From the NCBI GenBank assembly GCA_041648395.1, contig JBAZPC010000003.1, positions 12,801 through 76,800 on the forward strand: 64,000 bases of DNA, in the 5' to 3' direction. Source of the DNA: Minisyncoccota bacterium (lineage in GTDB: Bacteria > Patescibacteriota > Minisyncoccia > UBA9983). Under the pieces are notes generated by a model. The model saw nothing but the letters and a program-made list of their open reading frames with translations. It was not told where the DNA came from and ran no database searches. Position 1 is the first letter of the stretch. Every line of letters starts with the position of its first letter. Positions 2,526 through 63,880 of the stretch are shown here, one piece after another. Position numbers and translations under genes: made by a program.

Positions 2526-3194
2526 ATGGTTTTTCATTTGGTTACGATTTTTCCCGAGGCGATTAAGAGTTATTTTGACAGCTCTATTTTGAAGCGCGCG
2601 CAGGAAAAAAAAATGGTGAAAATAAAATTTTACAATCCGCGGGATTTCGCGAAAGATAAACATAAGCGGGTTGATGACAAGCCGTTTGGCGGAGGACCGG
2701 GGATGGTAATGAAGATTGAACCGCTTGTTAAAGTAATTCAATTTGTAATCTCAAAAATAAAACCTGCCCGACAGCAAGGCGGGTCTCAAAAATCAAAAAT
2801 TATTATTTTAGCGCCGACAGGAAAACAATTTACACAAAAAATGGCTCAAGATTTTGCCAAGAAATACAAAAATATTATTTTAATTTCTGGCCACTACGAA
2901 GGAATTGACGAACGAGTGGCGAAAATTTTCAAAGCGGAAAAAATTTCCGTCGGCCCATATGTTTTGACGGGCGGGGAATTGGCGGCGGGGGTTGTTATTG
3001 ACGCCGTCTCGCGCCACATCCCTGGCGTGCTCGGCAAAGCGGAATCGCTTGAAGAAAAAAGGGGAGCCCTCGGTTTACAGGTCTACACCCGGCCGGAAGT
3101 TTTCAAATGGCGCGGTAAAAAATACCGCGTGCCGAAGGTTTTATTGTCTGGCAATCACAAAAAAATAGAAGAATGGAAACGATTGACACATTAA
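2526..3194 (+). CDS. trmD: tRNA (guanine37-N1)-methyltransferase
   Basis: MVFHLVTIFPEAI..., GGGPGMVM, ISGHYEGIDERV. Confidence 0.85.
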   Translation: MVFHLVTIFPEAIKSYFDSSILKRAQEKKMVKIKFYNPRDFAKDKHKRVDDKPFGGGPGMVMKIEPLVKVIQFVISKIKPARQQGGSQKSKIIILAPTGKQFTQKMAQDFAKKYKNIILISGHYEGIDERVAKIFKAEKISVGPYVLTGGELAAGVVIDAVSRHIPGVLGKAESLEEKRGALGLQVYTRPEVFKWRGKKYRVPKVLLSGNHKKIEEWKRLTH

Positions 3195-4382: not shown

Positions 4383-7109
4383 ATGCCTCCATTTGGAAAT
4401 TTTACAACTAAAGCGCAGGAAGCGGTGCGCAAAGCCCATGAAGTGGCGATTGAGCGCGGGCAGAATCATGTTGATGTGATTCATCTTTTGGCCGCTTTGA
4501 CCATGCAAGACGAAAGCATGGTTCTTTCCGTTTTGGACAAATTGCAGGTGGACGTCGTTTTTTTATCCGATTCTATTCTTGACCACATAAGCGAAACGGA
4601 AAAGTCGTCTCTACTTACGCCTTCTTACCAAATTTTTCTCACCACGGAATTGGCGAAAGTTCTTGAGGCCTCGCACAAAATAGCGAGATTCATGAAAGAC
4701 GATTACGTTTCCACCGAACACCTTTTTTTGGCCATTCTGGAAATTCCTTCAAGTGCCAGAGATATGCTCGCAAAATTCAGAATAACAAAAGAAAATACGA
4801 TGAGCGTTTTAAGCGAACTCCGCCAGGCGAATGTCACGGACGTTGATATGCCGAACAAGTCCAAAATTTTGGAAAAATATTCCAGAAATCTCACCAAGCT
4901 CGCGCGCGAAGACAAACTTGACCCGGTGATAGGAAGAGAGGGCGAAATAAAAAGAGTGATGCAAATTTTAAACAGAAGAACGAAAAATAATCCCATACTC
5001 ATCGGCGAAGCCGGAGTGGGGAAGACGGCCATTGTGGAGGGCTTGGCGCAAATGATAGCCAAGGCGGATGTGCCGGAATCGTTGCGCGACAAAGAACTTA
5101 TTTCTCTTGACCTGGGCGCTTTGGTTGCCGGAACGAAATACAGAGGAGAATTTGAAGAACGCTTAAAAACCGTGATGCGCGAGATAGAGCGCGCCAGCGG
5201 GAAAATTATTCTTTTTATAGACGAGATACACACCATTGTCGGCGCGGGCGCCGCGGAGGGAGCCATAGACGCTTCCAATATGCTGAAACCGGCGCTTTCC
5301 CGAGGGGAACTTCACGCCATCGGCGCCACCACCATAAAGGAATACCAAAAGCACATAGAAAAAGATATGGCCTTAACCAGAAGATTTCAACAGGTTTACG
5401 TTGAGGAGCCGTCGATTGATTCCGCCGTTTCAATTATGCGCGGGCTGAAGGAAAAATATGAGCTTCATCACGGCGTGAGAATTACGGATGACGCCATAAA
5501 ATCGGCCGTGAATTTTTCCAGCCGCTACATAACGGACAGATTTTTGCCGGACAAGGCCGTTGATCTCATTGACGAAGCGGCGAGCGCCATGCGCCTTGAG
5601 TTGGACAGCATGCCGGAGGAACTTGAAATAGCGCACAGGGAAATAATGAAATTGGAAATAGAAAAAGAGGCGCTAAAAAAAGAAGCGGAAGGAAAAGATG
5701 AAGCGGCGAACAAGGCGAAAAAAAGAATAAAGGAAATTGAGAAGAGTGTGAGCGATCTCAAGGAAAGAATTTTTTCGCTTGAATTAAAATGGAAAAACGA
5801 AAAGGAATCAATCGCGAACATCAGACAGCTGAAAAAAGATTTTGAAATATTTAAACTGGAAGCGGACACGGCCGAGAGAAAAGTTGATTTGGCTCGCGTG
5901 GCGGAGTTGCGCTACGGAACCTTGCCGTCTTTGGAGAAAAAAATAACGGAAGAGGAAAAGCGATTAAAAAAACTACAGATATCAAGACGCCTATTGAAAG
6001 AAGAGATAACGGAAGAAGATATCGCTGCCGTTGTTTCGCGCTGGACGGGCATTCCGGTTTCCAAAATGCTGGAGAGCGAGGCGGGCAAACTAATGAAACT
6101 TGAAGATGAATTGAGGAAAAGAGTGGTGGGTCAAGATGAAGCTATAATAAAAATCGCCAACGCCATCAGGCGTTCGCGGGCGGGAATTTCTTTTGAAGAC
6201 AGGCCAATCGGTTCGTTTATGTTTTTAGGTCCCACAGGAGTGGGGAAGACGGAGCTCGCCAAGGCCTTGGCGGAATTTATGTTTAACGACGAAAAAGCGC
6301 TCATCAGGGTTGATATGTCAGAATATATGGAACGGCACACCGTTTCCAAATTTATCGGTTCGCCGCCGGGATATGTGGGGCACGAAGAGGGAGGCCAACT
6401 CACGGAGCTTGTCCGCCATCGCCCCTACTCCATAGTTCTTTTTGACGAAATAGAAAAAGCGCATCCGGAGGTGTTCAACATCATGCTTCAAATTTTAGAC
6501 AACGGCCGGCTTACAGACGCCAAAGGCAGGCACGTTAATTTTAAAAATTCCGTTTTGATAATGACATCAAATATCGGCTCTGAATTCGTGCGCAAAATGG
6601 AAAATCTCGGTTTTGCTGTCGCTAAAAACGGCGAAGAAGAAACAGAAAAACAGCTGAAGGAAAAAATAACGCAGGCGCTTGAAGATAAGTTCAGGCCGGA
6701 GTTTTTAAACCGCTTGGACGAGATAATTATTTTCAACAGCCTCACCCACGAAAATCTCAAAAATATCGTAAAAATCCAAATCGGCATCGTTGTTAGCCAA
6801 TTGGCAAAAAAAGATATTGGTCTTGATATTTCCGACCAGGCCCTTTCTTTTTTGGTAAAAGAAGGTTATAATCCGCATTACGGCGCGCGCCCTTTAAAAC
6901 GCTTAATTCAGAATAAAATTTTGAACCAAGCGGCCAATCTCATCATTGCCGGCAAAGTTAGAGAAGGAGGAATTATTTCCGTTGATGTCAAAAACGGCGA
7001 CTTGGCGATAGAGGCCTGCCCGACGGCAAGGCGGGCGGCGGCAAAAGGCAGAGTTAGGGGTAGGTGGCGGAGTGGTCAATCGCACCAGACTGTAAATCTG
7101 GCGGCCTAA
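4383..7109 (+). CDS. clpB: ATP-dependent chaperone ClpB. The ORF reads ~50 nt into tRNA-Tyr.
   Basis: Two AAA+ modules (GEAGVGKT, GPTGVGKT), coiled-coil M domain, sensor-2 GARPLKR. Unusual GC-rich C-terminal tail. Confidence 0.85.
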   Translation: MPPFGNFTTKAQEAVRKAHEVAIERGQNHVDVIHLLAALTMQDESMVLSVLDKLQVDVVFLSDSILDHISETEKSSLLTPSYQIFLTTELAKVLEASHKIARFMKDDYVSTEHLFLAILEIPSSARDMLAKFRITKENTMSVLSELRQANVTDVDMPNKSKILEKYSRNLTKLAREDKLDPVIGREGEIKRVMQILNRRTKNNPILIGEAGVGKTAIVEGLAQMIAKADVPESLRDKELISLDLGALVAGTKYRGEFEERLKTVMREIERASGKIILFIDEIHTIVGAGAAEGAIDASNMLKPALSRGELHAIGATTIKEYQKHIEKDMALTRRFQQVYVEEPSIDSAVSIMRGLKEKYELHHGVRITDDAIKSAVNFSSRYITDRFLPDKAVDLIDEAASAMRLELDSMPEELEIAHREIMKLEIEKEALKKEAEGKDEAANKAKKRIKEIEKSVSDLKERIFSLELKWKNEKESIANIRQLKKDFEIFKLEADTAERKVDLARVAELRYGTLPSLEKKITEEEKRLKKLQISRRLLKEEITEEDIAAVVSRWTGIPVSKMLESEAGKLMKLEDELRKRVVGQDEAIIKIANAIRRSRAGISFEDRPIGSFMFLGPTGVGKTELAKALAEFMFNDEKALIRVDMSEYMERHTVSKFIGSPPGYVGHEEGGQLTELVRHRPYSIVLFDEIEKAHPEVFNIMLQILDNGRLTDAKGRHVNFKNSVLIMTSNIGSEFVRKMENLGFAVAKNGEEETEKQLKEKITQALEDKFRPEFLNRLDEIIIFNSLTHENLKNIVKIQIGIVVSQLAKKDIGLDISDQALSFLVKEGYNPHYGARPLKRLIQNKILNQAANLIIAGKVREGGIISVDVKNGDLAIEACPTARRAAAKGRVRGRWRSGQSHQTVNLAA

Positions 7110-8172: not shown

Positions 8173-8243
8173 GGGAGATTAGTTAAATGGTATAATGTTG
8201 GTCTCCAAAACCAACGTCAGGGGTTCGATTCCCTTATCTCCCG
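8173..8243 (+). tRNA. tRNA-Trp (anticodon CCA)
   Basis: Acceptor GGGAGAT/ATCTCCC. Anticodon arm TTGGT-CTCCAAA-ACCAA. T loop TTCGATT. Upstream TATAGT -10-like box. Confidence 0.8.
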
Positions 8244-9133
8244 CTAGTCCACTTTATATCTTTGTTTCTTTTAAACCAAGTCATTTGACGTTTGGCGTAT
8301 TGGCGGTTTTCTAAAATCATTTTTTCTAACATTTCTGTTTTATTAATCTTTCCTTGCAGAAACATTGCCGGATATTTGTATTCAAAACCGAGTTCATAAA
8401 GCCGTTTCCAACTTAATTTGGAGTCATGCAACCTTTTTGTTTCTTTAATTAAACCTTGCCGAAGCATTTTTTTAACCCGTTTTTCTATGCGTTTTTGCAA
8501 TTCTTTTTCCGGTAATTTAATGCCAATAAAAAGATACTGACTACTGACTACTGGATACTGACTACTAACTTTTGGCACCTTGCCAAGAGTTTTTGCTATC
8601 TCTATCGCCCTAATCAGCCGTCGCGGATTTTTTGCATCTATGTTTTTTGCCCTAATTGAATTTAACTTTTTCAGCATTTTGAATAATTTTTCCACAGGCA
8701 TTTTTTCCAGTTTCTTGCGCAATTTCCAATTTGGCGCCACTTCGGCGATTTGCATTCTACCCAGAAGAATATCAATGTAAAAACCAGTTCCGCCACAGAT
8801 GATCGGTGTTTTCCCGCGCGCTAAAATATCCGCAATCGCTTTCTCTCCACATCTTTTAAAGTCCAAGGCAGTAAAAATCTTTTTCGGCGAAGCAATATCA
8901 AGGCAATAATGTGACACGCCTTTCATTTCTTTTTTACTAATTTTCCCCGAGCCGATATTTAGCCCCTTATAAACCTGCCTAGAGTCAGCGGAAATAATTT
9001 CAGCTCGCCCTGACTTATCCCGAACATTGTTGAGGGAGCCGAGTCGAAGGGCAAACTTAACTGCCAGCTCGCTTTTACCAGAAGCAGTGGGTCCAATAAT
9101 GACGATAATTTTATCATTTGTCATTTTACGCAT
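8234..9133 (-). CDS. miaA: tRNA dimethylallyltransferase
   Basis: IIVIIGPTASGKSELAV P-loop, SADSRQVYKGLNIGSGKI. Contains an in-frame heptamer repeat tract. Confidence 0.85.
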   Translation of the reverse strand: MRKMTNDKIIVIIGPTASGKSELAVKFALRLGSLNNVRDKSGRAEIISADSRQVYKGLNIGSGKISKKEMKGVSHYCLDIASPKKIFTALDFKRCGEKAIADILARGKTPIICGGTGFYIDILLGRMQIAEVAPNWKLRKKLEKMPVEKLFKMLKKLNSIRAKNIDAKNPRRLIRAIEIAKTLGKVPKVSSQYPVVSSQYLFIGIKLPEKELQKRIEKRVKKMLRQGLIKETKRLHDSKLSWKRLYELGFEYKYPAMFLQGKINKTEMLEKMILENRQYAKRQMTWFKRNKDIKWTSGR

Positions 9134-9150
9134 ATGCTGAATTTGACTAA

Positions 9151-9987
9151 CTATTTTTGTTCAATATTTTCCAATGGACTTTTAATATTTCTAATTGCCG
9201 GATTGGTGACTTTGGTATAAAGTTGAGTCGTTCTAATATTTTGATGCCCTAATAATTCCTGCACATAACGCACATCCACACCGTTTTCTAATAAATGTGT
9301 GGCAAAACTATGGCGAAGAGAATGAAAAGTGGCGTCTTTTTGAATACCTGCCTTTTTTAATCCGTTTTCAAAAACTTTCTGTGCCGTGCGTTCCGTTAAT
9401 TTTCCTCCCCTGCCGTTCTCAAAAAAGTAATCGTCAACCGGTCTGCTTGTTGCTAAATTTATAATGTCATTTTTGAGCTTCTCGGGGAAAATAGTTATGC
9501 GGTCTTTATCTCCCTTTGCCCCCTTAATATGGATTGTTAATTCTTCAATATTTATATCTTTAATTCTCAAATTTGTTGCTTCACTAACTCGAAAACCGGT
9601 GCCATAAGATAAAGCGATAATTAATTTATGCTTCTGATTTGAAATTGCGTTTATAATATTTTCTATTTCTATCCGAGAAAGAACGACCGGAAGTTTTTTT
9701 GAAGTTTTGGCAAATTTCAAATCAACCGCAATAGCAGATTTCATTACATCGCGGTAAAAATATTTAATCGCGTTAAGATAAAGATTGATGGTTTGCGATG
9801 ATTGCCTCCTTTCCTGTTTTTCTAACAGATATTTTTTGATTACATCAATATTCGGATCTTTTCCAATGGTTCCGATAAAACGAAAAAAATCAGAAAGGCA
9901 TAAAAGGTAGCTCTTAATTGTCTTCCGGCTATAATTGCGCAATTTTAGCTCAATTTCAGTTTTTTGTAATAATTCTTGTAATTGCAT
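9151..9987 (-). CDS. tyrosine site-specific recombinase (XerC/XerD / phage-integrase family)
   Basis: C-terminal catalytic region HSLRHSFATHLLENGVDVRYVQELLGHQNIRTTQLYTKV (R..HxxR..Y). Ends with TAG. Confidence 0.8.
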   Translation of the reverse strand: MQLQELLQKTEIELKLRNYSRKTIKSYLLCLSDFFRFIGTIGKDPNIDVIKKYLLEKQERRQSSQTINLYLNAIKYFYRDVMKSAIAVDLKFAKTSKKLPVVLSRIEIENIINAISNQKHKLIIALSYGTGFRVSEATNLRIKDINIEELTIHIKGAKGDKDRITIFPEKLKNDIINLATSRPVDDYFFENGRGGKLTERTAQKVFENGLKKAGIQKDATFHSLRHSFATHLLENGVDVRYVQELLGHQNIRTTQLYTKVTNPAIRNIKSPLENIEQK

Positions 9988-10151
9988 AAAATTTATATTA
10001 TATTAAAACCAGTCGAAATTTAAGAAAATGCTATCATGTATTCGCACAATATACAAATTATAGCATATTAACAAACAATTATTCGCATAATAACGAGTTA
10101 GCTGAAATAGCAAAAAACAAAATTGGAAAAGTTATTTTTGGAAATTTTTTA

Positions 10152-10188
10152 ACAAAAAAATCCCGAGATAAAAATCATCTCGGGATTG
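10152..10188 (-). terminator. rho-independent terminator for the 10212..10574 gene
   Basis: AATCCCGAGAT...ATCTCGGGATT inverted repeat, U-run on the minus strand. Confidence 0.5.
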
Positions 10189-10211
10189 ATAATGGCTAAC
10201 CTGAACCGCGC

Positions 10212-10574
10212 CTAGATAGCGAGATAAACCTCTTTGATTGGCATTCCCTCGTAGGTGCATGGGAGGTCTTCGCGGTGAAGACGGAAAAATATTTGCCCAT
10301 CCTGCTTGGTTTCGACAAAGCCACCACCTGAAGCATACTTGTGACCATGGGTAACATCGATCACTTTCATTTCAGCGTTCAGCATACCAATCGCGACCTT
10401 GGCGTCGTACAGCTCAGAAAAGTTAGCTCCTTCTGTGGGCAAACATTTTTCCGGCGATCCGAACACTACACAGTATCCGATATCCTCGCTGATTTTTGCG
10501 AAAAATAGAAGCGTGTGCTCATCAGATACACCCTGTACTATTACAACACCCATCTTTCCAATCGTAACTTTCAT
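10212..10574 (-). CDS. hypothetical protein (120 aa)
   Basis: AGGAGG RBS, TAG stop. No recognisable motif. Followed by a 360-bp AT-rich spacer. Confidence 0.45.
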   Translation of the reverse strand: MKVTIGKMGVVIVQGVSDEHTLLFFAKISEDIGYCVVFGSPEKCLPTEGANFSELYDAKVAIGMLNAEMKVIDVTHGHKYASGGGFVETKQDGQIFFRLHREDLPCTYEGMPIKEVYLAI

Positions 10575-10938
10575 GTGTTCCTCCTATTCGTAGTTTTTTG
10601 TTAAAAAATTTCCAAAAATAACTTAGAAATCGACCTCACTAATGGCTTGTTTAATTTAAAGAGCTTTGTAGTAGTATACAAATTTTGATAGAAATGTCAA
10701 CAGTCAGTCGATTTATTTTGTTTTTTGCTACATCAGCTAACACGGCACATGCGGTTAAAAAATTTTGCGTTATTAGACACTTAAATCAAGGTTTGCAAAA
10801 TTTTTGAACCCAAATTGCGCTGACGAAATGGTAAGTTTAGTGATATAATCAAGATAGGCGATAATTAACAAATTTAATCAATAATCCACGGCGCAACTTC
10901 GCATGTGCCGATACGTTAAGTGAAATAATTAAAGCATT

Positions 10939-12002: not shown

Positions 12003-12023
12003 CCCCGCACTAAATTTTCCCGA

Positions 12024-12107
12024 TGCCGAAGGAGGGGGTCGAACCCTCATGGAATTACTTCCACACGATTTTGAGTCGTGCGCGTCTGCCAATTCCGCCA
12101 CTTCGGC
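12024..12107 (-). tRNA. tRNA-Leu (anticodon CAA), class II
   Basis: Acceptor GCCGAAG/CTTCGGC, disc A. Anticodon arm CACGA-CTCAAAA-TCGTG. Long variable arm. T arm GAGGG-TTCGACC-CCCTC. Confidence 0.8.
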
Positions 12108-12238
12108 AAAATTAGTGCGGGGTAAATCTGCCAACCTGCCCCGTAGTTAATGCAAAGCATTATACTTCGGGGTTCCGCCACTTTCTGAATCTTAATAAAT
12201 TTGCGTTCAAAAATCAATTTTAGTATAATTCCACTATT

Positions 12239-13207: not shown

Positions 13208-14635
13208 CCTCACTTTTGATTTAATTTGTTTTCTGGCGAAAGTGGTTTTGGCGTGTTTAAGCCACTCGGCGCTCGGCTTTTTGTTTTTTTGCGTTTTGAT
13301 TTCAATGATATCTCCGTTTTTTAAGGTAGTATCCAATGACACAAATTTGTGATTAATGACGGCGCCGTTGGCGCTGTTGCCGATGTCGGAATGCACGGCG
13401 TAGGCGAAATCAATCGCCGTTGAACCTTCCGGCAGGTCAATAACATCACCTATGGGTGTAAAACAAAATACCCTGTCTTTAAAAAAATCTATTCTTAATG
13501 TTTCTAAAAAATCTTTTGAACCGGAAACGCCTGCCTGCCATCCGATAAGCTGATTTACCCAGGCGAGATGGGGATGAAATTTTCCGCCTTCGTCCGGCTT
13601 GCCCGATTCCGCGTAGGCCCAGTGGGCGGCAATGCCGTGCTCGGCCTCCTCGTGCATTTTTTCCGTCCGTATTTGAATTTCTATTATTATCCCGTCCGTG
13701 GCGAAGACGGTAGTGTGCAAGCTTTGGTAGCCGTTCGGTTTCGGCGTGGCGATGTAGTCCTTTATTCTTCCTGGCAAGGGTCTCCATAATTTATGGATTA
13801 TGCCGAGGATTTTATAACAGTCCTCAATGGTTTTGACGATGATTCTTATGGCAATGAAGTCGTAAATTTTATCTATATTCATTTCCACTTCCGGCGTCTG
13901 AAGTTTCTTGAATAAGCTGTAGAGATGCTTGACCCTTGAGTCCATTTTAAAATCTTTTACGCCGTTTTTTGAAAACTCCTTTTGCAGTTCTTTTTTCACT
14001 TTTTCCAAGTCCTTTTCTTTTTCTTCATATTTTTCTTTCAGTATTTTTATGATTTCTTTGTATTCTTCCGGATGGGCGAAGGGGAATGCCAAATCTTCAA
14101 GCTCTCCTTTCAACTCTCCCATACCCAGCCGGTTTGAGAGCGGGGCGAAAATTTCCAATGTTTCCACAGCGATTCTTTTTTGTTTTTCCTTCGGCACATG
14201 CTCAAGGGTCTCCATGTTGTGAAGGCGGTCGGCTAGTTTAATAAGAACAACGCGGATGTCTTTTGCCATAGCCAAAAACATTTTGCGCAGATTTTCAACT
14301 TGCCGTTCTTCACCGCGGTATTTTAACGTGCCGAGTTTTGTGACGCCGGCGACCAAAAAAGAAATTTCCTCCCCAAATTCTTTTTTCAATTGTTTCTCGG
14401 TTATTCCCGTGTCCTCATAGATGTCGTGAAGAAGTCCTGCGGAGATTGCCTTAGCGTCAAGTTGAAGGTGGGCAAGCGTTTTGGCGGTTTCAAAGGGATG
14501 GGCGAAATACGGCTCGTCGGAAAATCTTTTTTGTCCTTCATGTGCCTGCCTTGCGAACTCAAAAGCGCGGGTAATCAGATCAATATCCGCCCTTGATGGC
14601 CTTTTCAGAATGTTGATAATTTCGTTGACATCCAT
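13184..14635 (-). CDS. short bifunctional (p)ppGpp synthetase/hydrolase, Rel/SpoT family (HD + synthetase + TGS, no ACT)
   Basis: HD motif AGLLHDIYEDT. Synthetase motif DYIATPKPNGYQSLHTTV. TGS GDVIDLPEGSTAIDFAY. Confidence 0.85.
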   Translation of the reverse strand: MDVNEIINILKRPSRADIDLITRAFEFARQAHEGQKRFSDEPYFAHPFETAKTLAHLQLDAKAISAGLLHDIYEDTGITEKQLKKEFGEEISFLVAGVTKLGTLKYRGEERQVENLRKMFLAMAKDIRVVLIKLADRLHNMETLEHVPKEKQKRIAVETLEIFAPLSNRLGMGELKGELEDLAFPFAHPEEYKEIIKILKEKYEEKEKDLEKVKKELQKEFSKNGVKDFKMDSRVKHLYSLFKKLQTPEVEMNIDKIYDFIAIRIIVKTIEDCYKILGIIHKLWRPLPGRIKDYIATPKPNGYQSLHTTVFATDGIIIEIQIRTEKMHEEAEHGIAAHWAYAESGKPDEGGKFHPHLAWVNQLIGWQAGVSGSKDFLETLRIDFFKDRVFCFTPIGDVIDLPEGSTAIDFAYAVHSDIGNSANGAVINHKFVSLDTTLKNGDIIEIKTQKNKKPSAEWLKHAKTTFARKQIKSKVRSNRKIIY

Positions 14636-14680
14636 TGTGTTGTATAGTATACTCTCTTTTAGAATAAAAATTAAGGATAT

Positions 14681-14758
14681 TGGGATGTAGCTCAGCCTGG
14701 TCTAGAGCGCCTGAACTTAAAATTCAGGAGGTCGCAGGTTCGAATCCTGCCATTCCCA
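14681..14758 (+). tRNA. atypical tRNA-like gene: anticodon UAA in a 7-nt loop on a 6-bp anticodon stem, short variable loop, T1-C72 acceptor mismatch
   Basis: D arm GCTC-AGCCTGGTCTA-GAGC. Anticodon arm CCTGAA-CTTAAAA-TTCAGG. T arm GCAGG-TTCGAAT-CCTGC. Acceptor TGGGATG/CATTCCC (6 of 7 pairs). Confidence 0.45.
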
Positions 14759-14804
14759 ACCAAACCTTTTTTAGCACATTTTAAATTTAAGTAAGGAGGG
14801 AGAA

Positions 14805-15074
14805 ATGAAGCAAAAACAAAGATTGGAGCAAAAAACCACAATGAAGCAGGAATTTGATATGACTGACATGCAAAGCGTTTGCATTGGTGCTGATGTAAAG
14901 GCACAGGAACTGATTGAAAAACATAAAGGCAACAAAGGGGAGATTGAGAAAGAAATTCTTGAAATGGAAGTTCCTAAGGGAGTTGCAGATATAAAAGATT
15001 TCAATTACCGTGAAGAAATCTGGGGGGCTGCAAAATGGCTCATATCTTACTATAAACCCGGACTGGCGACTTAG
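14805..15074 (+). CDS. hypothetical small protein (89 aa)
   Basis: RBS AGGAGGG 6 nt upstream, TAG stop, strong terminator immediately downstream. Confidence 0.4.
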   Translation: MKQKQRLEQKTTMKQEFDMTDMQSVCIGADVKAQELIEKHKGNKGEIEKEILEMEVPKGVADIKDFNYREEIWGAAKWLISYYKPGLAT

Positions 15075-15095
15075 TCGCCAGTTTTTTTTATTTTT
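15060..15095. terminator. bidirectional rho-independent terminator
   Basis: CTGGCGACT-TAG-TCGCCAG stem flanked by A-run and T-run. Serves the convergent 14805 ORF and topA. Confidence 0.55.
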
Positions 15096-18906: not shown

Positions 18907-18980
18907 GCTAGGGAAGCTCAAGTGGCAAGAGCGCCAGACTCTAAATCTGGAGGTTGGCGGTTCAAATCCGCCCCCTGGCA
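18907..18980 (+). tRNA. type-I tRNA with anticodon CUA (reads UAG; putative amber suppressor, amino-acid identity unknown)
   Basis: Acceptor GCTAGGG/CCCTGGC (U3-G70), disc A73. D arm GCTC-AAGTGGCAA-GAGC. Anticodon arm CCAGA-CTCTAAA-TCTGG. Variable loop AGGTT. T arm GGCGG-TTCAAAT-CCGCC. Confidence 0.7.
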
Positions 18981-18993
18981 GCCATGCAAATAA

Positions 18994-19024
18994 AGGGCGG
19001 TTGAAATACACCGCCTTTTTGTTT
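18994..19024 (+). terminator. rho-independent terminator after tRNA(CUA)
   Basis: GGCGGT...ACCGCC stem plus TTTTTGTTT. Overlaps the track's upstream serS start, which supports the serS start at 19058. Confidence 0.5.
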
Positions 19025-19057
19025 GCTCAAAACAGGTGGATTTGGTATTATAAAATT

Positions 19058-20332
19058 ATGTTAGACATCAAATTTATCAGGGAACATTTGGATTTAGTAA
19101 AAGAGGCCGCGAGGAAAAAGCGCATTGATTTTGATGTGGATAAACTTATTGAAGTTGACGACAGGCGTTTGAAGCTTTTAAAAGAAGTTGAAGAAATGAG
19201 AGCTAGGCAAAACACGGCGAGCGATAAAATAGCGCAGATGTCGGGCGATGAAAGGCAGGATGCTATTAATGAAGTAAAAAAATTAAAAGAGGAATTAACA
19301 ACCAGCGAGGGCGCGCTGAAGATAATAGAAAAAGAATGGGAGGAAATGATGTTATTGGCGCCGAATGTGCCGGACCCCTCCGTGCCGGAAGGCGAGAGCG
19401 ACGCGGATAATGTTGAAGTGCGCAAGTGGGGCGAGCCGACAAAATTTGGCTCCCCGCCCAGGGATTTTGAACCGAAAGGCCATATTGAACTAATGGAAAA
19501 ATTAGGGCTTGTTGATTTGGAACGAGGCGCGAAGGTTGCCGGCTTCCGCGGATATTTTTTGAAAGGTGATGGCGCCATGCTCGCGTTTGCCGTTATGCAA
19601 TTCACTTTGGAAAAATTGGCGGAGCAGGGTTTTGAGCCGTTCATCGCGCCGTCGCTTGTGCGCGAAGATAGTTTTTTGGGAACGGGCTGGCTGCCGCAGG
19701 GAAAAGATGAAATTTATAAAACGCAAGACGATTTGTATTTGGCGGGAACAGCCGAAGTGCCGATGATGGGATTTCATAAAGATGAAATTTTACGCGAGGA
19801 GGATTTGCCAAAAACTTACGTCGCGTTTTCGCCGTGCTTCAGGCGGGAGGCGGGAAGCTACGGCAAGGACACGAAAGGAATTTATCGCTTGCACGAGTTT
19901 ATGAAAATTGAGCAGATTGTTTTGTGCGAGGCGGACCATCAGGAATCCGTGAAATGGCACGAGGAGATTACGCGCAATTCCGAGAATATCATGCAAGCGC
20001 TGAAAATTCCGTATCGCGTGGTGGTGAACTGCGGCGCCGACCTCGGTTTGGGGCAAGTGAAAAAATATGACATTGAGGCGTGGGTGCCGTCATGGAAGAG
20101 ATACGGCGAGACGCATTCGTCTTCTTATTTTCATGACTTTCAAACGAGGCGCCTGAATATCCGCTATAAAGACAAGGAGGGAAAAATTCGTTTCGCGCAT
20201 TCGCTAAACAACACTGCCATCGCCGTCCCGCGCATTTTAATTTCGCTTTTGGAAAACTATCAACAAAAAGACGGCACCGTCATCGTCCCTGAAGTTTTGA
20301 GAAAATATCTCGGCAAAGACATAATTTCGTAA
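19058..20332 (+). CDS. serS: seryl-tRNA synthetase
   Basis: MLDIKFIREHLDLV N-terminal coiled coil. Class II motifs FRREAGS..., GETHSSS. Confidence 0.85.
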   Translation: MLDIKFIREHLDLVKEAARKKRIDFDVDKLIEVDDRRLKLLKEVEEMRARQNTASDKIAQMSGDERQDAINEVKKLKEELTTSEGALKIIEKEWEEMMLLAPNVPDPSVPEGESDADNVEVRKWGEPTKFGSPPRDFEPKGHIELMEKLGLVDLERGAKVAGFRGYFLKGDGAMLAFAVMQFTLEKLAEQGFEPFIAPSLVREDSFLGTGWLPQGKDEIYKTQDDLYLAGTAEVPMMGFHKDEILREEDLPKTYVAFSPCFRREAGSYGKDTKGIYRLHEFMKIEQIVLCEADHQESVKWHEEITRNSENIMQALKIPYRVVVNCGADLGLGQVKKYDIEAWVPSWKRYGETHSSSYFHDFQTRRLNIRYKDKEGKIRFAHSLNNTAIAVPRILISLLENYQQKDGTVIVPEVLRKYLGKDIIS

Positions 20333-53838: not shown

Positions 53839-56352
53839 ATGAATCCGTACAGCCATAAAAAAATTGAAAAGAAGTGGCAAAAGTATTGGGAGAAAAATAA
53901 ACTTGACCAGGCGAAAGATTTTTCCAAAAGGCCTAAATATTATTGTCTCGTAGAATTTCCTTATCCGTCGGGAGACGGCTTGCATGTAGGCCACACTCGA
54001 AGCTATACTGCCATGGATATAATTGCCCGCAAAAGAAGAATGCAGGGCTACAACGTGCTTTATCCCATGGGCTGGGACGCTTTCGGTTTGCCGACGGAAA
54101 ATTACGCTATTAAAAAAGGAGTTCACCCAAGCGTTATTACAAAAAAGAATACAGATAATTTTAGAAGGCAATTAAAATCATTAGCTTTTTCTTTTGATTG
54201 GAGCAGGGAAATAAATACTACCGACCCGAAATATTATAAATGGACGCAGTGGATATTTTTGCAGCTTTTTAAGAAGGGCTTGGCGTACAAGCATAAAATG
54301 CCGATAAACTGGTGCTTGTCTTGCAAAGTCGGTTTGGCGAACGAGGAGGTGGTGGACGGCAAGTGCGAGCGTTGCGGGGGGCAGACGGAAAAAAGGGAAA
54401 AAGAGCAATGGATGTTGGCCATAACGAAATACGCCGACCGGCTAGATAAGGATTTGGATCCGCCAGCTGGCGGATTAGATTATCTGGAAAAAATAAAAAT
54501 CCAGCAGAGAAATTGGATAGGGAAATCAGAAGGAGCGGAGATTGAATTCAAGATTCAAGATTCAAGTTTCAAGTTTCAAGTTTTTACCACACGCGTTGAT
54601 ACTATTTTTGGTTGCACTTATGTAGTTGTTGCGCCCGAGCATGAGATAATCTCAAAACTAAAATCGCAAATATTAAATCTGAGCGAAGTTGAAAAATATA
54701 TTAATGAAGCGAAAAGAAAATCAGACCTGCAAAGGACGGAATTGCAAAAAGAAAAAACTGGCGTTGAATTGAAGGGCATGAAAGCCATTAATCCTTTCAA
54801 TAATGAAGAAGTGTCGGTGTTTGTGGCGGACTATGTTTTGGGGCATTATGGCACAGGCGCGGTAATGGCCGTCCCCGCGCACGACGAACGCGATTTTGAA
54901 TTCGCGAAGAAATATGGATTACCGGTGCGGCAATCGGTCGCCAGAAATTCTAATTTCTTAAGGACGGACGACGAGGGAAATCCTACGAAATCAGAAATTT
55001 CTGGCTCCCTTAGTGAGTGTTTTGTTGAAGATGGCGTCCTTGCTGATTCCGGCCAGTTTTCCGGCCTGACTTCTGCCGAGGCGTGCGGGGAGATGGTGAA
55101 ATGGCTGGAGGAAAAGAAGTTGGGGAAAAAAGTGGTTAAATTTCACTTGCGCGACTGGGTTTTCTCCCGCCAGCATTATTGGGGCGAGCCGATACCGATA
55201 GTGAATTGTCCAAAATGCGGCCTAGTACCGGTGCCGGAAAAAGATTTGCCGGTAAAATTGCCTGATGTAAAAAAATACGAACCGACTGACACGGGCGAAT
55301 CGCCGTTGGCGGCTATTTTAAAATGGGTGAATGTAAAATGCCCGAAGTGCAAAGGTCCGGCAAAAAGGGAAACCGACACCATGCCAAACTGGGCGGGATC
55401 GTCTTGGTATTATCTCGCATATTTAATGCTCGAAAATAAAAAATCAAATCTCAAAAATCAAAAATATGTTTGGGATAAGAAAAAATTAAAATATTGGATG
55501 CCCGTTGATTGGTACAACGGCGGAATGGAGCACACAACTTTGCATTTATTATATTCACGATTTTGGAATAAATTTTTATTTGACATCAAGGCGGCGCCGA
55601 CAAGCGAGCCGTATAAAAAAAGAACTTCGCATGGAATGATACTTGGACCGGACGGAGAGAAGATGTCCAAGTCGCGCGGCAATGTGATAAATCCGGACGA
55701 TATGGTTTCCGCTTATGGCGCAGACGCTTACCGTTTGTACCAAATGTTTATGGGGCCGTTTGATCAAGCGATACCATGGGACCCGAAAGGCATTGAAGGC
55801 ACGAGTAGGTTTTTGGGAAGAGTGTGGAAGTTGTTATCAGCCGTCAGCTATCAGTCGTCAACCAAAGAGCAAAAGCTGAAAGCTGAAAGCGGAAAGCTGA
55901 AGACTTTATTGCACAAAACCATCAAAAAAGTTTCTGAAGATATTGAAAGCATGCGGTTCAACACAGCTGTCAGTTCACTCATGATTTTATCAAACGAGAT
56001 GGAGAAACAGGAAGAAATACTGACTACTGATTACCTAATACTGGTTACTCTTTTAAGTCCTTTTGCTCCTCATATCTGCGAAGAAATTTGGAGCAAGCTT
56101 GGTAACAAAAAATCAATCTTTTTGGAAAAATGGCCGAAGTTTGATTCCCAAAAAATAAGAGAAGATAGTTTTGAATTGGTGATGCAAGTGAACGGCAAAG
56201 TGAGAGACAGGTTTGAGGCGCCGACGGATATTTCCGAAAATGACGCCATGTTATTGACATTGAAACGCGAAAATGTTAAAAAGTGGATAGGCGATAAACA
56301 AGTCAAAAAAGTCATATTTATCCAAAATAAGCTGATAAATTTAATAGCATAA
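53839..56352 (+). CDS. leuS: leucyl-tRNA synthetase
   Basis: HVGHTRSYT (HIGH), KMSKS. Editing domain. Carries the 18-bp palindrome and two heptamer tracts. Confidence 0.9.
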   Translation: MNPYSHKKIEKKWQKYWEKNKLDQAKDFSKRPKYYCLVEFPYPSGDGLHVGHTRSYTAMDIIARKRRMQGYNVLYPMGWDAFGLPTENYAIKKGVHPSVITKKNTDNFRRQLKSLAFSFDWSREINTTDPKYYKWTQWIFLQLFKKGLAYKHKMPINWCLSCKVGLANEEVVDGKCERCGGQTEKREKEQWMLAITKYADRLDKDLDPPAGGLDYLEKIKIQQRNWIGKSEGAEIEFKIQDSSFKFQVFTTRVDTIFGCTYVVVAPEHEIISKLKSQILNLSEVEKYINEAKRKSDLQRTELQKEKTGVELKGMKAINPFNNEEVSVFVADYVLGHYGTGAVMAVPAHDERDFEFAKKYGLPVRQSVARNSNFLRTDDEGNPTKSEISGSLSECFVEDGVLADSGQFSGLTSAEACGEMVKWLEEKKLGKKVVKFHLRDWVFSRQHYWGEPIPIVNCPKCGLVPVPEKDLPVKLPDVKKYEPTDTGESPLAAILKWVNVKCPKCKGPAKRETDTMPNWAGSSWYYLAYLMLENKKSNLKNQKYVWDKKKLKYWMPVDWYNGGMEHTTLHLLYSRFWNKFLFDIKAAPTSEPYKKRTSHGMILGPDGEKMSKSRGNVINPDDMVSAYGADAYRLYQMFMGPFDQAIPWDPKGIEGTSRFLGRVWKLLSAVSYQSSTKEQKLKAESGKLKTLLHKTIKKVSEDIESMRFNTAVSSLMILSNEMEKQEEILTTDYLILVTLLSPFAPHICEEIWSKLGNKKSIFLEKWPKFDSQKIREDSFELVMQVNGKVRDRFEAPTDISENDAMLLTLKRENVKKWIGDKQVKKVIFIQNKLINLIA
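54458..54475. repeat. 18-bp perfect palindrome ATCCGCCAGCTGGCGGAT inside leuS (encodes DPPAGG)
   Basis: Self-complementary. Related copies at 11468-11483, 15289-15304, 44415-44430, 62793-62809. Confidence 0.85.
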
Positions 56353-60887: not shown

Positions 60888-60960
60888 AGGCGATTTTGTA
60901 AAAGCGGGGAGATGATATCAAGCCGCTTTTTATTTTTTGTATTTTATTTATAATACTCTT

Positions 60961-62676
60961 ATGACTTCCCATGAAATTCGTGAAAAATTCTTAAAGTTTT
61001 TTGAGGAAAAAGGGCATGCGGTTATTCCGTCTGCCTCTTTGATTCCTTCGGAAACAGACCCAACTGTGCTTTTTACCACTGCCGGCATGCACCCGTTGGT
61101 GCCTTATCTTTTAGGTGAGGAACATCCAGGCGGGAAGCGCGTGGCGAATTCGCAAAAATGCATCCGCACGGGCGACATAGACGAAGTGGGCGATGAAAGC
61201 CATCTCACTTTTTTTGAAATGTTGGGAAATTGGTCATTTGGGGACTATTTTAAAAAAGAAGCGATTGAATGGAGCTGGGAGTTTTTAACGGATAAAAAAT
61301 GGCTGGGGATTGATAAAAATAAATTAAGCGTGACGGTTTTTGAAGGCGACTCAAACGCCCCGCGCGATGAAGAATCGGCGCAAATTTGGCAGTCACTCGG
61401 CGTGCCAAAAGAAAAAATTTTTTATAAAGGAAAAGAAGATAACTGGTGGGGGCCGGCGGGCGCGACAGGGCCGTGCGGACCATGCACGGAAATGTTTATA
61501 GATAATATGGAGGTGTGGAATGACGTTTTTATGCAATACAACAAAACGGCGGATGGCAGTTTTGAACCACTCAAGCAAAAACCTGCCCGCAATGCTACGC
61601 ATAGCGTTGCAGGCGGGAATGTTGATACGGGGATGGGGCTGGAAAGAATCGCCATGGTGATACAGGGCGTCAATTCAGTTTACGAAACGGATTTGTTTGC
61701 GCCGATAATAAATAAAATAGAAAAGCTATCAGCAAACAGCTATCAGCTATCAGCTAAATCTTATCGCATTATCGCCGACCATATTAAGGCGAGCGTATTT
61801 ATAATTGCCGACGGGGTGATGACGTCCAATACAGGTAAAGGATATGTTTTACGTCGCTTAATAAGGCGCGCGGTAAGACACGGAAAATTATTGGGTATAG
61901 AAAAAGATTTTACAAAAGAAATTGCCGAGGTTGTTGTTGAAATTTATAAAGAACATTATCCAGAGGTAAAGAATAACGAATCAAGAATTATGAATGAATT
62001 GGAAAAAGAGGAAAAGAAATTTAAAGAGACATTAGAAAAAGGTCTGAAAGAATTTGAAAAAGGAACGGAACCATTTATTCTTTTTACGACCTTCGGTTTT
62101 CCGTTTGAATTAACCCAAGAGTTGGCAAAGGAAAAGGGGATTAAAATTGATATTGAAAATTTTAATGAGCAATTAAAAGCTCATCAACAGCTTTCCCGCA
62201 CGGCTTCCGTGGGTATGTTTAAGGGCGGGTTGGCGGACGCGGGTGAGATGACCACAAAATATCATACTGCCACGCATTTGCTTTTGGCGGCGTTAAGAGA
62301 GATTTTAGACGGGGATATAATTCAAAAAGGGAGTAATATCACAGCCGAGCGTTTGCGTTTTGATTTCAATTATCCGCAAAAAATAACAGACGAGCAGATT
62401 AAAAAAATTGAGGACTTAGTTAATGAAAAAATTCAGGAAAAAATTCCGGTGGAAATGATTGAATTGCCGAAAGAAGAAGCGTTGAAGGCGACCAAGTCGT
62501 CTTTTGATGAAGGTAAATACGGAGATATTGTGAAAGTTTATAAAATAGGAAATTTTAGCGTGGAATTGTGTGGCGGACCCCATGTCGCCAATACCGGCGA
62601 ACTCGGCCGTTTTAAAATCACCAAAGAAGAAGCGTCTTCTGCGGGCGTGCGGAGAATCAAGGCGGTATTGGAGTAA
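60961..62676 (+). CDS. alaS: alanyl-tRNA synthetase, short form (catalytic + editing core, no C-terminal domain)
   Basis: MTSHEIREKFLKFFEEKGH, class II motifs, editing HxxxH...CGGPH. Contains a heptamer tract. Confidence 0.85.
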   Translation: MTSHEIREKFLKFFEEKGHAVIPSASLIPSETDPTVLFTTAGMHPLVPYLLGEEHPGGKRVANSQKCIRTGDIDEVGDESHLTFFEMLGNWSFGDYFKKEAIEWSWEFLTDKKWLGIDKNKLSVTVFEGDSNAPRDEESAQIWQSLGVPKEKIFYKGKEDNWWGPAGATGPCGPCTEMFIDNMEVWNDVFMQYNKTADGSFEPLKQKPARNATHSVAGGNVDTGMGLERIAMVIQGVNSVYETDLFAPIINKIEKLSANSYQLSAKSYRIIADHIKASVFIIADGVMTSNTGKGYVLRRLIRRAVRHGKLLGIEKDFTKEIAEVVVEIYKEHYPEVKNNESRIMNELEKEEKKFKETLEKGLKEFEKGTEPFILFTTFGFPFELTQELAKEKGIKIDIENFNEQLKAHQQLSRTASVGMFKGGLADAGEMTTKYHTATHLLLAALREILDGDIIQKGSNITAERLRFDFNYPQKITDEQIKKIEDLVNEKIQEKIPVEMIELPKEEALKATKSSFDEGKYGDIVKVYKIGNFSVELCGGPHVANTGELGRFKITKEEASSAGVRRIKAVLE

Positions 62677-62695
62677 AAATGTTATAATTCAACCA

Positions 62696-63880
62696 ATGAG
62701 TTTTTTAGGAAAAAAGAAGGATGAAATTATTGCCGTCATAAATATCGGCAGCGCTTCGGTTAGCGGAATGATGGTAAAAAAATCGGCCGGCAATCCGCCG
62801 GCTGGCGGAGCCGAAATAATAACCAGCGCCAAAATTCCAGTAAACTTTCTAGCAGATGTGGATTATGCCGCCTTTTGGCGATGCACTTGCGACTCGCTTA
62901 AAAAAGTCATTGATAAATTGCTGGTTGGTTATCCAAAAGGCCCCGATAAAGTTCTTTGTGTTTTTTCGCCTCTTTGGGGAATTTCCCAGACAAGGGTGAT
63001 AAGAGTGAGGAGGGAGGAACCGTTCACGGCGACTCAAGAATTTCTGGATGAACTTATTGATAACGAAATAAAAATTTTTCAAGCCCAATGGCACAATAGA
63101 ATCCCGTATCTGAAAGACGATTCAGAGCTGGTTGAGAAAGAAATAATCAAAACAACTTTAAACGGCTACAGCGTAAAAAATCCGTTTGGCAAAAAAGCAA
63201 AAAAGATGGATGTTTTTGTACATTTGAGTTTGGTAGTAAGGGGGGCGAAGGACTCTATCCAAAAATATTTTTTTGATAATTTTGGAGATGTGCTGGTTGT
63301 TTTCCATACCTTGCCTTTTGTTGTTTTTTCCTCGCTGAAAGGCATAATAAACGCGGAGGAGGGATTCCTTTTTTCCGACATCGGCGGAGAGACAAGCGAC
63401 ATCTCTCTCGTGCGTAAAAATATTATTGAAGAAACTTTGACCTTTCCGCGCGGGAGGAATTTTTTAATAAGAAACATAGCCAAAGAATTTAAAACTTTCA
63501 TTGATGAGGCAAAATCGCTTCTGGCGAGCTTTAGGAAGGGAGATTTAAACAAAGCGTCTTCTGATAAAATTTCAGCAGTCATAAACGCCGCTCAAGCAGA
63601 ATGGTGCGGATTTGCGGAAAAGGCGCTGGGGGAAATTTATCAAAATTCGCCGTTACCGATGGCTTTTATAATGGTAAGTGACGAAAATGTCGGACAGGAA
63701 TTTTCCGAATGCGCCAAGAACGAATCTTTCGCGAAATTCACCGTCCTCGGCAAGCCGTTTGATGTAAAACAAATTTCCGCCGACGCCTTAAAACACAACT
63801 TCAAATTCAAGCGCAGCTTTGCGCAAGACAACGACGTCTTCCTGATGCTCATCTCCCTCTTCGCCGACAAAAATTTGTAA
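62696..63880 (+). CDS. actin-like ATPase, FtsA/PilM-like
   Basis: VINIGSASVSG and DIGGETSDISLV phosphate motifs. Contains a PPAGG element variant. Confidence 0.5.
   Translation: MSFLGKKKDEIIAVINIGSASVSGMMVKKSAGNPPAGGAEIITSAKIPVNFLADVDYAAFWRCTCDSLKKVIDKLLVGYPKGPDKVLCVFSPLWGISQTRVIRVRREEPFTATQEFLDELIDNEIKIFQAQWHNRIPYLKDDSELVEKEIIKTTLNGYSVKNPFGKKAKKMDVFVHLSLVVRGAKDSIQKYFFDNFGDVLVVFHTLPFVVFSSLKGIINAEEGFLFSDIGGETSDISLVRKNIIEETLTFPRGRNFLIRNIAKEFKTFIDEAKSLLASFRKGDLNKASSDKISAVINAAQAEWCGFAEKALGEIYQNSPLPMAFIMVSDENVGQEFSECAKNESFAKFTVLGKPFDVKQISADALKHNFKFKRSFAQDNDVFLMLISLFADKNL

Follow-up and report, generated by a model that had tools for sequence, protein, structure and literature searches.

An oddly built tRNA gene with anticodon UAA upstream of a small open reading frame in an uncultured Patescibacteria bacterium

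Introduction

What is the role of a tRNA gene that carries a leucine anticodon on a body in which the variable loop is short, and whose anticodon arm is two nucleotides too long? This question is raised by a locus in a stretch of 64,000 nucleotides (the window) of contig JBAZPC010000003.1, from a Minisyncoccota bacterium (assembly GCA_041648395.1). A first-pass annotation, made from the letters of the window alone, had described a tRNA-like gene with anticodon UAA at 14681-14758. It had proposed a pseudogene, a non-canonical decoder or a second suppressor-type tRNA. The analysis described here leads us to conclude that the tRNA gene at 14681-14762 is real, oddly built and evolutionarily maintained in this uncultured Patescibacteria (candidate phyla radiation, CPR) bacterium. 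What the molecule does is a matter of graded likelihood, and the possible roles are weighed below as the evidence on each of them is given. Coordinates are those of the window and features lie on the + strand, unless otherwise indicated.

Identification of the tRNA gene

Read directly, the sequence at 14681-14758 consists of a 5' acceptor strand TGGGATG (14681-14687), TA for U8 and A9 (14688-14689), a D arm GCTC-AGCCTGGTCTA-GAGC (14690-14708), G26 (14709), an anticodon arm CCTGAA-CTTAAAA-TTCAGG (14710-14728), a 5-nt variable loop AGGTC (AGGUC in the RNA, 14729-14733), a T arm GCAGG-TTCGAAT-CCTGC (14734-14750) and a 3' acceptor strand CATTCCC followed by A (14751-14758). The canonical D and T arms and the short variable loop that had first been described were thus borne out, and the body is of class I (type I), with canonical D and T loops.

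Folding with a covariance model had been suggested as a check. The Rfam model RF00005, searched against both strands of the whole 64-kb window, gave 54.2 bits at this locus, for a gathering score of 29 (E = 7e-9). The Rfam alignment placed one insertion in each strand of the anticodon stem and marked pair 1:72 as non-standard. ARAGORN called a tRNA(taa) at 14680-14762. Its model has an anticodon stem of 6 bp closed by a 7-nt loop, a variable loop of 5 nt and an acceptor continuing into a terminal CCA; stem, loop and anticodon are those originally read from the window copy. Besides the above-threshold score, the cloverleaf has the nucleotides of a canonical elbow, with G18 and G19 in the D loop, a UUCRANY T loop, U8, A14 and U33. 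Its dimensions depart from those of a canonical tRNA in two places: the anticodon arm is 19 nt long instead of 17, and the acceptor contains either a 1:72 mismatch or a bulged base.

Single-sequence folding is usually uninformative for tRNAs. Here, the minimum free energy structure was not a cloverleaf, and the z-score was -1.5. The nearest annotated look-alikes by sequence were tRNA-Pro, tRNA-Ala and tRNA-Asn (75-80% identity); these are generic matches, which do not decide the isotype.

It had been pointed out that a single-nucleotide sequencing correction might turn the element into a standard tRNA. An identical 83-nt sequence was found in the ENA assembly ERZ27249422, and the Logan assembly of another run (SRR8449827) matched the window over 1806 nt with no mismatch. 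Since the same sequence occurs in independent assemblies, a one-base assembly error behind the odd features is excluded.

Conservation of the fold in an orthologue

Syntenic loci were fetched with RelA homologues as anchors (n = 10). Only one of them, L097 (Logan SRR33468575), has a tRNA at the same syntenic place. Its RelA is approximately 85-89% identical to that of the window (approximately 85% by BLAST), and its tRNA has the sequence TGGGGTGTAGCTCAGCCTGGTAGAGCGCCTGGTCTTAAAACCCGGGAGGTCGCAGGTTCGAATCCTGTCACGCCCAACCA. The search for orthologues and compensatory changes, also suggested at the outset, thus yielded one orthologue and two compensatory pairs.

The two tRNAs differ by nine substitutions and a 2-nt change in D-loop length. 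From window to L097, pairs 5:68 and 31:39 both change from A-U to G-C, which is compensatory. Pairs 29:41 (U-A to U·G) and 49:65 (G-C to G·U) undergo wobble-neutral changes. In the extra layer of the anticodon arm both sides are changed, from A-U to U·C, and pairing is lost. The last substitution, U to G, affects one base of the 3' acceptor strand, which we propose below to be bulged. All nine substitutions therefore lie in helices or in the bulge, and none of them breaks a canonical pair. Positions 8, 9 and 26 are the same in the two copies, as are the loops of the anticodon and T arms and the variable loop. By our own arithmetic, the chance that nine random substitutions all miss the 34 unpaired positions out of 79 is approximately 0.006. 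Moreover, the flanking non-coding DNA is visibly more diverged than the tRNA. Because the changes are confined to helices and bulge and include two compensatory pairs, while the flanks have diverged further, the comparison suggests, without being strong, that the cloverleaf, including its anticodon stem, is under purifying selection.

These data bear on whether the gene is a recently acquired or decaying tRNA paralogue whose irregularities are defects. Such a pseudogene would account for the two structural irregularities, for the patchy distribution (the UAA tRNA is present in 2 of the approximately 90 syntenic loci examined) and for the loss of the sixth layer as a pair in the orthologue. However, both irregularities are kept in two lineages, the substitutions spare every canonical pair and include two compensatory pair changes, the surrounding non-coding DNA has drifted further, and the promoter described below is intact. 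We therefore consider the pseudogene originally proposed unlikely.

Acceptor stem and 3' end

The acceptor had first been read as pairing at six of seven positions, with a T1-C72 mismatch. This register is possible, but another one fits better: seven Watson-Crick pairs are formed, from T14681-A14758 (U1-A72) to G14687-C14751 (G7-C66), when T14754 is bulged out of the 3' strand. Over the window copy and the orthologue, 14 of 14 acceptor cells are paired in the bulge register, compared with 11 of 14 in the U1×C72 register, and the former is more stable by 0.7-2.2 kcal/mol. The proposed bulged base at 14754 is U in the window and G in the orthologue. The bulge register also aligns with the ...CCCGACCA end of tRNAPro, the closest full-length look-alike. 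Moreover, it accounts for the conservation of ...CCCAACCAAACC. The gene is therefore better bounded as 14681-14762. We propose, from these two sequences, that the acceptor is better read as 7 bp plus one bulged base of the 3' strand, followed by the discriminator A14759 and an encoded CCA (14760-14762).

Several identity positions are indifferent to this choice. Whichever register is chosen, A is the discriminator (14758 or 14759). Position 3:70 is occupied by a G-C pair in the two registers and in the two orthologues, so that the G3:U70 pair typical of tRNAAla is absent. The window copy alone shows a G·U pair at 4:69, and it does so only in the U1×C72 register.

Anticodon arm and stop codons

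The anticodon arm (14710-14728) reads CCUGA-A-CUUAAAA-U-UCAGG, that is five conserved pairs with one extra layer. The anticodon assigned by ARAGORN is UAA (T-A-A, 14718-14720), preceded by C32 and U33 and followed by A37 and A38. In the window copy the extra layer is an A-U pair, giving a 6-bp stem and a 7-nt loop. In the orthologue it is U·C, giving either a 5-bp stem with the 9-nt loop UCUUAAAAC or a non-Watson-Crick layer. The feature conserved between the two sequences is an arm of 19 nt in which N-CUUAAAA-N stands on five pairs, rather than a sixth Watson-Crick pair.

The arm had also been read as a 9-nt loop with UUA, complementary to the ochre stop codon, as its central triplet. This proved incorrect. 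UAA stands at the centre of the 9-nt loop ACUUAAAAU, and the triplet UUA is off-centre, preceded by C rather than by U33. An ochre suppressor would carry UUA at positions 34-36 behind U33, and these positions read UAA. Stop codons were also tallied in 45 open reading frames (ORFs): 29 end in TAA, 10 in TGA and 6 in TAG. The ochre-suppressor reading would require C33 and an asymmetric loop in a genome region where TAA is the commonest stop, and the second suppressor-type tRNA of the first-pass annotation is not supported.

Proximity to another tRNA, with anticodon CUA, had been part of that argument. The CUA tRNA (18907-18980) indeed lies only 4.2 kb from the UAA tRNA, but the two share no specific sequence relationship. 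Their 66% identity is generic for class-I tRNAs, and kinship between them was rejected.

The same arm could be thought to serve a wider kind of recoding, in which UUA in an expanded 9-nt loop suppresses ochre codons or the loop reads quadruplets or quintuplets. Expanded anticodon loops are a hallmark of frameshift-suppressor tRNAs, the arm of the orthologue can be drawn as a 5-bp stem with its 9-nt loop, and 8-nt loops of sequence A-CUUAAAA occur in tRNAs of a Saccharibacteria metagenome-assembled genome (MAG; L068) and of a viral contig (L230). Nevertheless, the extra bases are symmetric and pair as A-U in the window, which restores a normal 7-nt loop. Moreover, the off-centre UUA has C in place of the near-universal U33, and TAA is in routine use as a terminator. 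No candidate frameshift sites were noticed, though no search was aimed at them. Ochre suppression or frameshifting by this tRNA is thus highly improbable.

Genomic context and transcription unit

The tRNA gene is divergent from relA, and its neighbours are core chromosomal genes (parB, a short relA/spoT, topA, dprA, serS and ftsQ) that are syntenic in relatives. The RelA homologues are labelled Patescibacteria or Parcubacteria. A phage or mobile origin was rejected: the 7.5-kb neighbourhood has no phage match, and the flanking genes are core and syntenic.

A sigma-70-like promoter, TTGACA-17 nt-TATACT (14625-14653, 11 of 12 consensus matches), ends approximately 28 nt upstream of the tRNA 5' end. 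Its -35 box overlaps the first codons of relA, and its -10 box lies within the palindrome AGTATACT (14640-14660). Conservation of the -10 region and of the ...AAAAATTAAG that comes after it extends to all syntenic relatives. The palindrome itself is kept in nearly all of them, a few having AGTATATT or ATTATACT instead. Both the promoter of the tRNA and small ORF and the divergent relA might be served by it, in which case the relA leader would be very short.

Downstream of the tRNA is an 89-aa ORF without assigned function (14805-15074), which has a strong ribosome binding site (RBS, AAGGAGG) and is probably co-transcribed with the tRNA. An NCBI MAG with the name Candidatus Paceibacterota bacterium encodes an identical protein, and homologues of the ORF were found only in the same genome and in one relative that has nothing at the place of the tRNA. 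A hairpin followed by a T-run, resembling an intrinsic terminator, closes the unit (15060-15084). Since a promoter lies upstream and the sole terminator-like hairpin comes after the 89-aa ORF, we infer that the tRNA and the ORF form one transcription unit.

Occupancy of the slot upstream of the small open reading frame

The stretch that separates the small-ORF RBS from the conserved leader (...AAAAATTAAG) can be regarded as a slot, for which three kinds of occupancy were found around relA. It holds the tRNA in the window genome and in L097, and it is empty in L099, L104, L105 and L232/L233. In six relatives (L096, L098, L101, L103, L108 and L111) it holds a different RNA of 73-100 nt. Among more distant metagenome loci, 80 of which were fetched by RelA anchoring, none of the 77 usable ones has a tRNA upstream of relA. 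The tRNA gene is thus accessory and dispensable. As near relatives lack it, a canonical long-arm tRNALeu(UAA) is presumed to be encoded elsewhere in the genome.

The alternative RNA begins with A-CGGGGCG and ends with CGYCYYG-ACCA. These ends close the RNA by a 7-bp stem (consensus CGGGGCG/CGYCYYG). Three of its pairs covary, ACC(A) comes after it, and the interior is highly variable. In four copies the first hairpin is GGAGG-AAGY-CCUC or a close variant (in L096 the loop is UAAACAA). The copy in L096 (location 6853-7001, reverse strand) folds into a cloverleaf of 74 nt in which canonical D, T and anticodon loops are missing. Neither an Rfam match, even at E <= 5, nor an ARAGORN call was obtained for this RNA. 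It may be a mimic of the top half of a tRNA within an mRNA leader.

Homology between the alleles with the tRNA and those with the alternative RNA restarts exactly at ACCAAA. Moreover, in the RelA tree the genomes bearing either RNA are interleaved in one shallow clade. The shared junction and the interleaved tree indicate that tRNA and alternative RNA behave as exchangeable occupants of one site.

This exchange is the basis of the main rival to a decoding role. The tRNA would be a non-decoding, tRNA-like leader element, functionally equivalent to the ACCA-ended RNA of the relatives: its role would reside in the acceptor/T top half and the ACCA, and the anticodon would be a relic. It could, for example, be a module for RNase P and the CCA enzyme that processes or stabilises the mRNA of the small ORF, or an acceptor for a non-ribosomal use. 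The six relatives fit this proposal, as their RNA follows the same promoter and leader and precedes the small-ORF RBS, and as its covarying closing stem and ACC(A) enclose a variable interior which, in the L096 cloverleaf, has no canonical loops. The resumption of allele homology at ACCAAA and the interleaving in the RelA tree point in the same direction. So does the encoded CCA, present in both slot RNAs and in none of the five other tRNAs of the window (Tyr, Trp, Leu-CAA, CUA and Gln). A top half, however, has no need of an anticodon stem with a compensatory change (31:39) and a wobble-neutral one beneath an unchanged 7-nt loop, and the canonical D-loop and T-loop nucleotides of the elbow are all kept. 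In addition, the slot is empty in three or four relatives, so the downstream ORF requires no such element. Taken together, a leader element is a serious but doubtful explanation.

Decoding of leucine codons

How the codons facing this anticodon are used was analysed as well. TTA makes up 300 of 17,627 codons. Among 100 RelA homologues, Leu is more frequent than any other residue in each of the columns that hold the six TTA codons of RelA, and it reaches 99-100% in two of them. At 34 TTA codons in topA, dprA, serS, ftsQ and parB, 81% of the orthologue residues are Leu, compared with 76% for both CTT and TTG; most of the orthologues in this comparison come from genomes without the tRNA. TTA thus stands at leucine positions at the same level as CTT and TTG, and reassignment of a sense codon was rejected.

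The tRNA could still be a missense or ambiguous decoder that reads UUA/UUG and is charged with another amino acid, either Phe or one attached by an enzyme that recognizes the acceptor stem only. PheRS identity elements include A35, A36 and A73. Among annotated tRNAs, the window tRNA most resembles those for Pro, Ala and Asn (see above), its body being unlike tRNALeu, and other class-I UAA tRNAs with G3:U70 exist, for example in the Parcubacteria MAG L052. Some class-I UAA tRNAs also have, by eye, what we take to be tRNAPhe bodies. On the other side, any insertion of a residue other than leucine must be minor, given the positions at which TTA and TTG are found. Moreover, G3:U70 is missing in either register of the window tRNA, as is G34, a major PheRS determinant. 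Misdecoding of this kind is therefore quite improbable. We give no more credence to a natural recoding tRNA, marked by the lengthened anticodon arm and the bulged acceptor, that inserts a residue other than leucine at some UUA/UUG codons, or whose 9-membered loop reads a 4-5-base codon. Such a tRNA could be used at a few particular sites or in particular conditions, and be swapped in and out of the genomic RNA slot between strains.

In terms of isotype, A73 and a leucine-box anticodon are present, and the long variable arm (>10 nt) of class-II tRNALeu is absent, the variable loop being 5 nt long. A short variable loop with a leucine anticodon is the structure of a type-I tRNALeu. A long arm had initially been held to be necessary for tRNA-Leu; its absence is confirmed, but the premise was too strong, as the type-I tRNALeu of Streptomyces coelicolor is leucylated by its LeuRS (PMC6614811). 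The window LeuRS (53839-56352) keeps HLRDW..SRQHYWG, which agrees with the R/KLRDWGVSRQRYWG motif by which EcLeuRS binds A73 (PMC6614811). The leucine-specific-domain insert of the E. coli and Streptomyces LeuRS seems to be lacking in it.

The reading that we prefer, and which we hold tentatively, is that the gene encodes a supplementary type-I tRNA for UUA/UUG, processed, accessory and probably charged with leucine. The non-canonical decoder among the initial proposals is compatible with this evidence. Several points nevertheless weigh against it. The closest relatives (L103 and L096) are without the tRNA, and their slot holds an ACCA-ended RNA that has no conserved anticodon arm, which hints that the function of the slot may not be decoding. 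Only two sequences of this type are available, so covariation support is thin, and shuffle controls were not significant. The body is not tRNALeu-like. The D arm has none of what we assume to be tRNALeu-type features: its stem has 4 bp, and G15:C48 stands in place of A15:U48. The leucine-specific domain enables type-I charging in Streptomyces (PMC6614811), and the window LeuRS has only approximately 40 residues between the YSRFW segment and KMSKS, hence no insert of the size of that domain. Where a sixth anticodon pair exists in tRNAPyl and mt-tRNASer(UCN), connectors and variable loop are shortened (PMC7609411), and no such compensation is seen in the UAA tRNA. Finally, a canonical tRNALeu(UAA) was not found in the Patescibacteria loci, which cover only relA neighbourhoods.

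If the supplementary-decoder reading is correct, the strong promoter of the gene would produce a transcript with the tRNA as its first element and the small ORF behind it. RNase P and a 3' nuclease would cut the tRNA out of this transcript. The mature tRNA would then decode UUA and, by wobble, UUG, in addition to the usual decoders. Charging with leucine is proposed by analogy, because LeuRS is anticodon-blind and a type-I tRNALeu is a substrate in at least one bacterium. As a speculation, the altered anticodon arm and acceptor might turn it into a backup or specialised isoacceptor that, for instance, withstands an anticodon-loop nuclease or escapes a modification requirement.

If active in translation, it would be an example, from a free-living lineage, of a short-arm tRNA that serves leucine codons and has a lengthened anticodon helix. 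It would test the anticodon-to-acceptor geometry that the bacterial ribosome, EF-Tu and LeuRS tolerate, and could offer orthogonal tRNA design a useful natural scaffold. Should it not be a decoder, the tRNA and the ACCA-ended RNA of the relatives would represent an undescribed class of tRNA-top-half mimics in Patescibacteria mRNA leaders. In either case, annotation as tRNA-Leu from the anticodon alone is unsafe, and the genome has no ochre suppressor at this site. The finding would gain weight if the tRNA were the sole reader of UUA, if it were charged with an amino acid other than leucine, or if it belonged to a wider family of ACCA-ended leader RNAs.

Comparison with known tRNAs

One genome for each of 185,579 species was scanned with the pattern GAGC-N6/7-CUUAAAA-N12-15-GGTTCRANTCC. 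This gave 94 loci with class-I-sized tRNAs containing CUUAAAA, nearly all with normal arm dimensions, and none of the 94 has the architecture of the UAA tRNA. By eye, we take these loci to comprise tRNAPhe-like bodies, a Gln-like family in Planctomycetes and copies on Streptomyces plasmids. A tighter pattern found no match in the JGI metagenomes, and none of the 44 loci from an IMG/VR scan is orthologous. The literature on CPR tRNAs with expanded anticodon arms yielded nothing specific. As far as searched, this type of tRNA is thus confined to two related Paceibacteria lineages.

The nearest look-alikes in architecture are the two tRNAs with an 8-nt A-CUUAAAA loop already mentioned, which are 71-72% identical to the window tRNA. 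Both the L068 tRNA (1329-1404) and the L230 tRNA (2981-3057) have the variable loop GCGUC. The former lies between dus and dnaX, approximately 1.7 kb from an ORF for a PBECR1 nuclease (Barnase/EndoU/colicin-E5/D/RelE-like). The latter belongs to a phage tRNA array and adjoins another tRNA with an 8-nt loop. More generally, class-I-sized UAA tRNAs are scattered over approximately 94 species genomes (L002-L095) and 44 viral contigs (L188-L231). Those of Bacteroidales have the 8-nt loop UCUUAAAA and are sometimes in tandem. In L052 (Candidatus Parcubacteria MAG BM519), two class-I tRNAs stand in tandem (295-370 and 393-469), with anticodons UAA and CAA and both with an encoded ACCA; the UAA copy has a G3·U70 pair, an alanine identity mark, and a C31·U39 mismatch.

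Among characterized tRNAs, the tRNALeu(CAA) of Streptomyces coelicolor (PMC6614811) resembles the window tRNA by its leucine-box anticodon and 5-nt variable loop, and likewise coexists with class-II tRNALeu and a single LeuRS. However, it has a normal 5-bp/7-nt arm and a normal acceptor, whereas the window tRNA has UAA, an extra layer and an irregular acceptor. It is apparently essential, as deletion of the gene failed, whereas the window tRNA is accessory. ScoLeuRS needs its leucine-specific domain to charge it, and an insert of that size is absent from the window LeuRS. Animal mitochondrial tRNALeu(UUR) is also of class I, with anticodon UAA and A73, and reads UUA/UUG as leucine, but it is organellar, with relaxed D and T loops and an arm of canonical length. 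Human mt-LeuRS is sensitive to anticodon-stem length and to loop size (PMC6614811).

A 6-bp anticodon helix with a 7-nt loop, as in the window copy only, is known from tRNAPyl, mt-tRNASer(UCN) and tRNASec (PMC7609411). These tRNAs compensate by a single connector base, a 3-nt variable loop, a small D loop or a 13-bp acceptor/T domain, and they have dedicated partners and the anticodons CUA, UGA or UCA. The window tRNA, in contrast, keeps U8-A9 and G26, its variable loop has 5 nt and its D loop is large, and the additional layer is U·C in its orthologue. Assignment to tRNAPyl was rejected, as only the 6-bp stem of the window copy is shared. Absent from the UAA tRNA are CUA, the 3-nt variable loop, the single connector, a D loop lacking G18 G19 and the missing T-Psi-C. 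Assignment to tRNASec or allo-tRNA was rejected as well, since these require acceptor/T stems of 8/5, 9/4, 8/4 or 9/3 and a long variable arm, whereas 7/5 and a 5-nt loop are found here.

Yeast mt-tRNAThr(UAG), which has an 8-nt anticodon loop (PMC7609411), and the frameshift suppressors resemble the window tRNA either in joining a leucine-box anticodon to a class-I body or in their enlarged loop of 8-9 nt. They differ by having a single extra loop base and demonstrated recoding, whereas the window tRNA has two symmetric, pairable bases and no codon reassignment. According to PMC5389517, as relayed by PMC7609411, the allo-tRNA and selC* tRNACys of metagenomes are likewise rare and patchy, with irregular stems, a bulged base among the irregularities, and anticodons that do not match the body; they differ by 8/4 or 9/3 stems and long variable arms, and the bulge of selC* is in the T stem, not in the acceptor. 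Each feature of the window tRNA therefore has a precedent taken singly, and their combination had no identical match in our scans.

Other observations on the window

The ordinary tRNALeu(CAA) of the window (12022-12108) is an 87-nt class-II molecule with a long arm. The CUA tRNA, just upstream of serS (19001-20332), is a canonical-looking class-I tRNA that ARAGORN labels Pyl. Position 8 is A8 in place of U8, pair 3:70 is U3·G70 and the discriminator is A73. TAG is still the stop of 6 of the 45 ORFs tallied. No tRNA occurs at this position in L096, L097, L099 and L101, so the CUA tRNA is also accessory.

On the minus strand, two genes for tyrosine recombinases (8234-9133 and 9151-9987) adjoin the 3' end of tRNA-Trp (8173-8244). 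From approximately 10,890 on, the ENA contig k141_544071 is identical to the window; upstream of this point it diverges progressively, being approximately 95% identical back to approximately 10,809, after which there is no match. The region 8173-10890 could be a small integrated element or a strain-level variation. Finally, the AlaRS ORF (60937-62676) encodes 579 aa and ends in the SAD domain. Either a split or frameshifted AlaRS or a separate gene may lie behind a second long ORF (62570-63880), which overlaps its 3' end in another frame.

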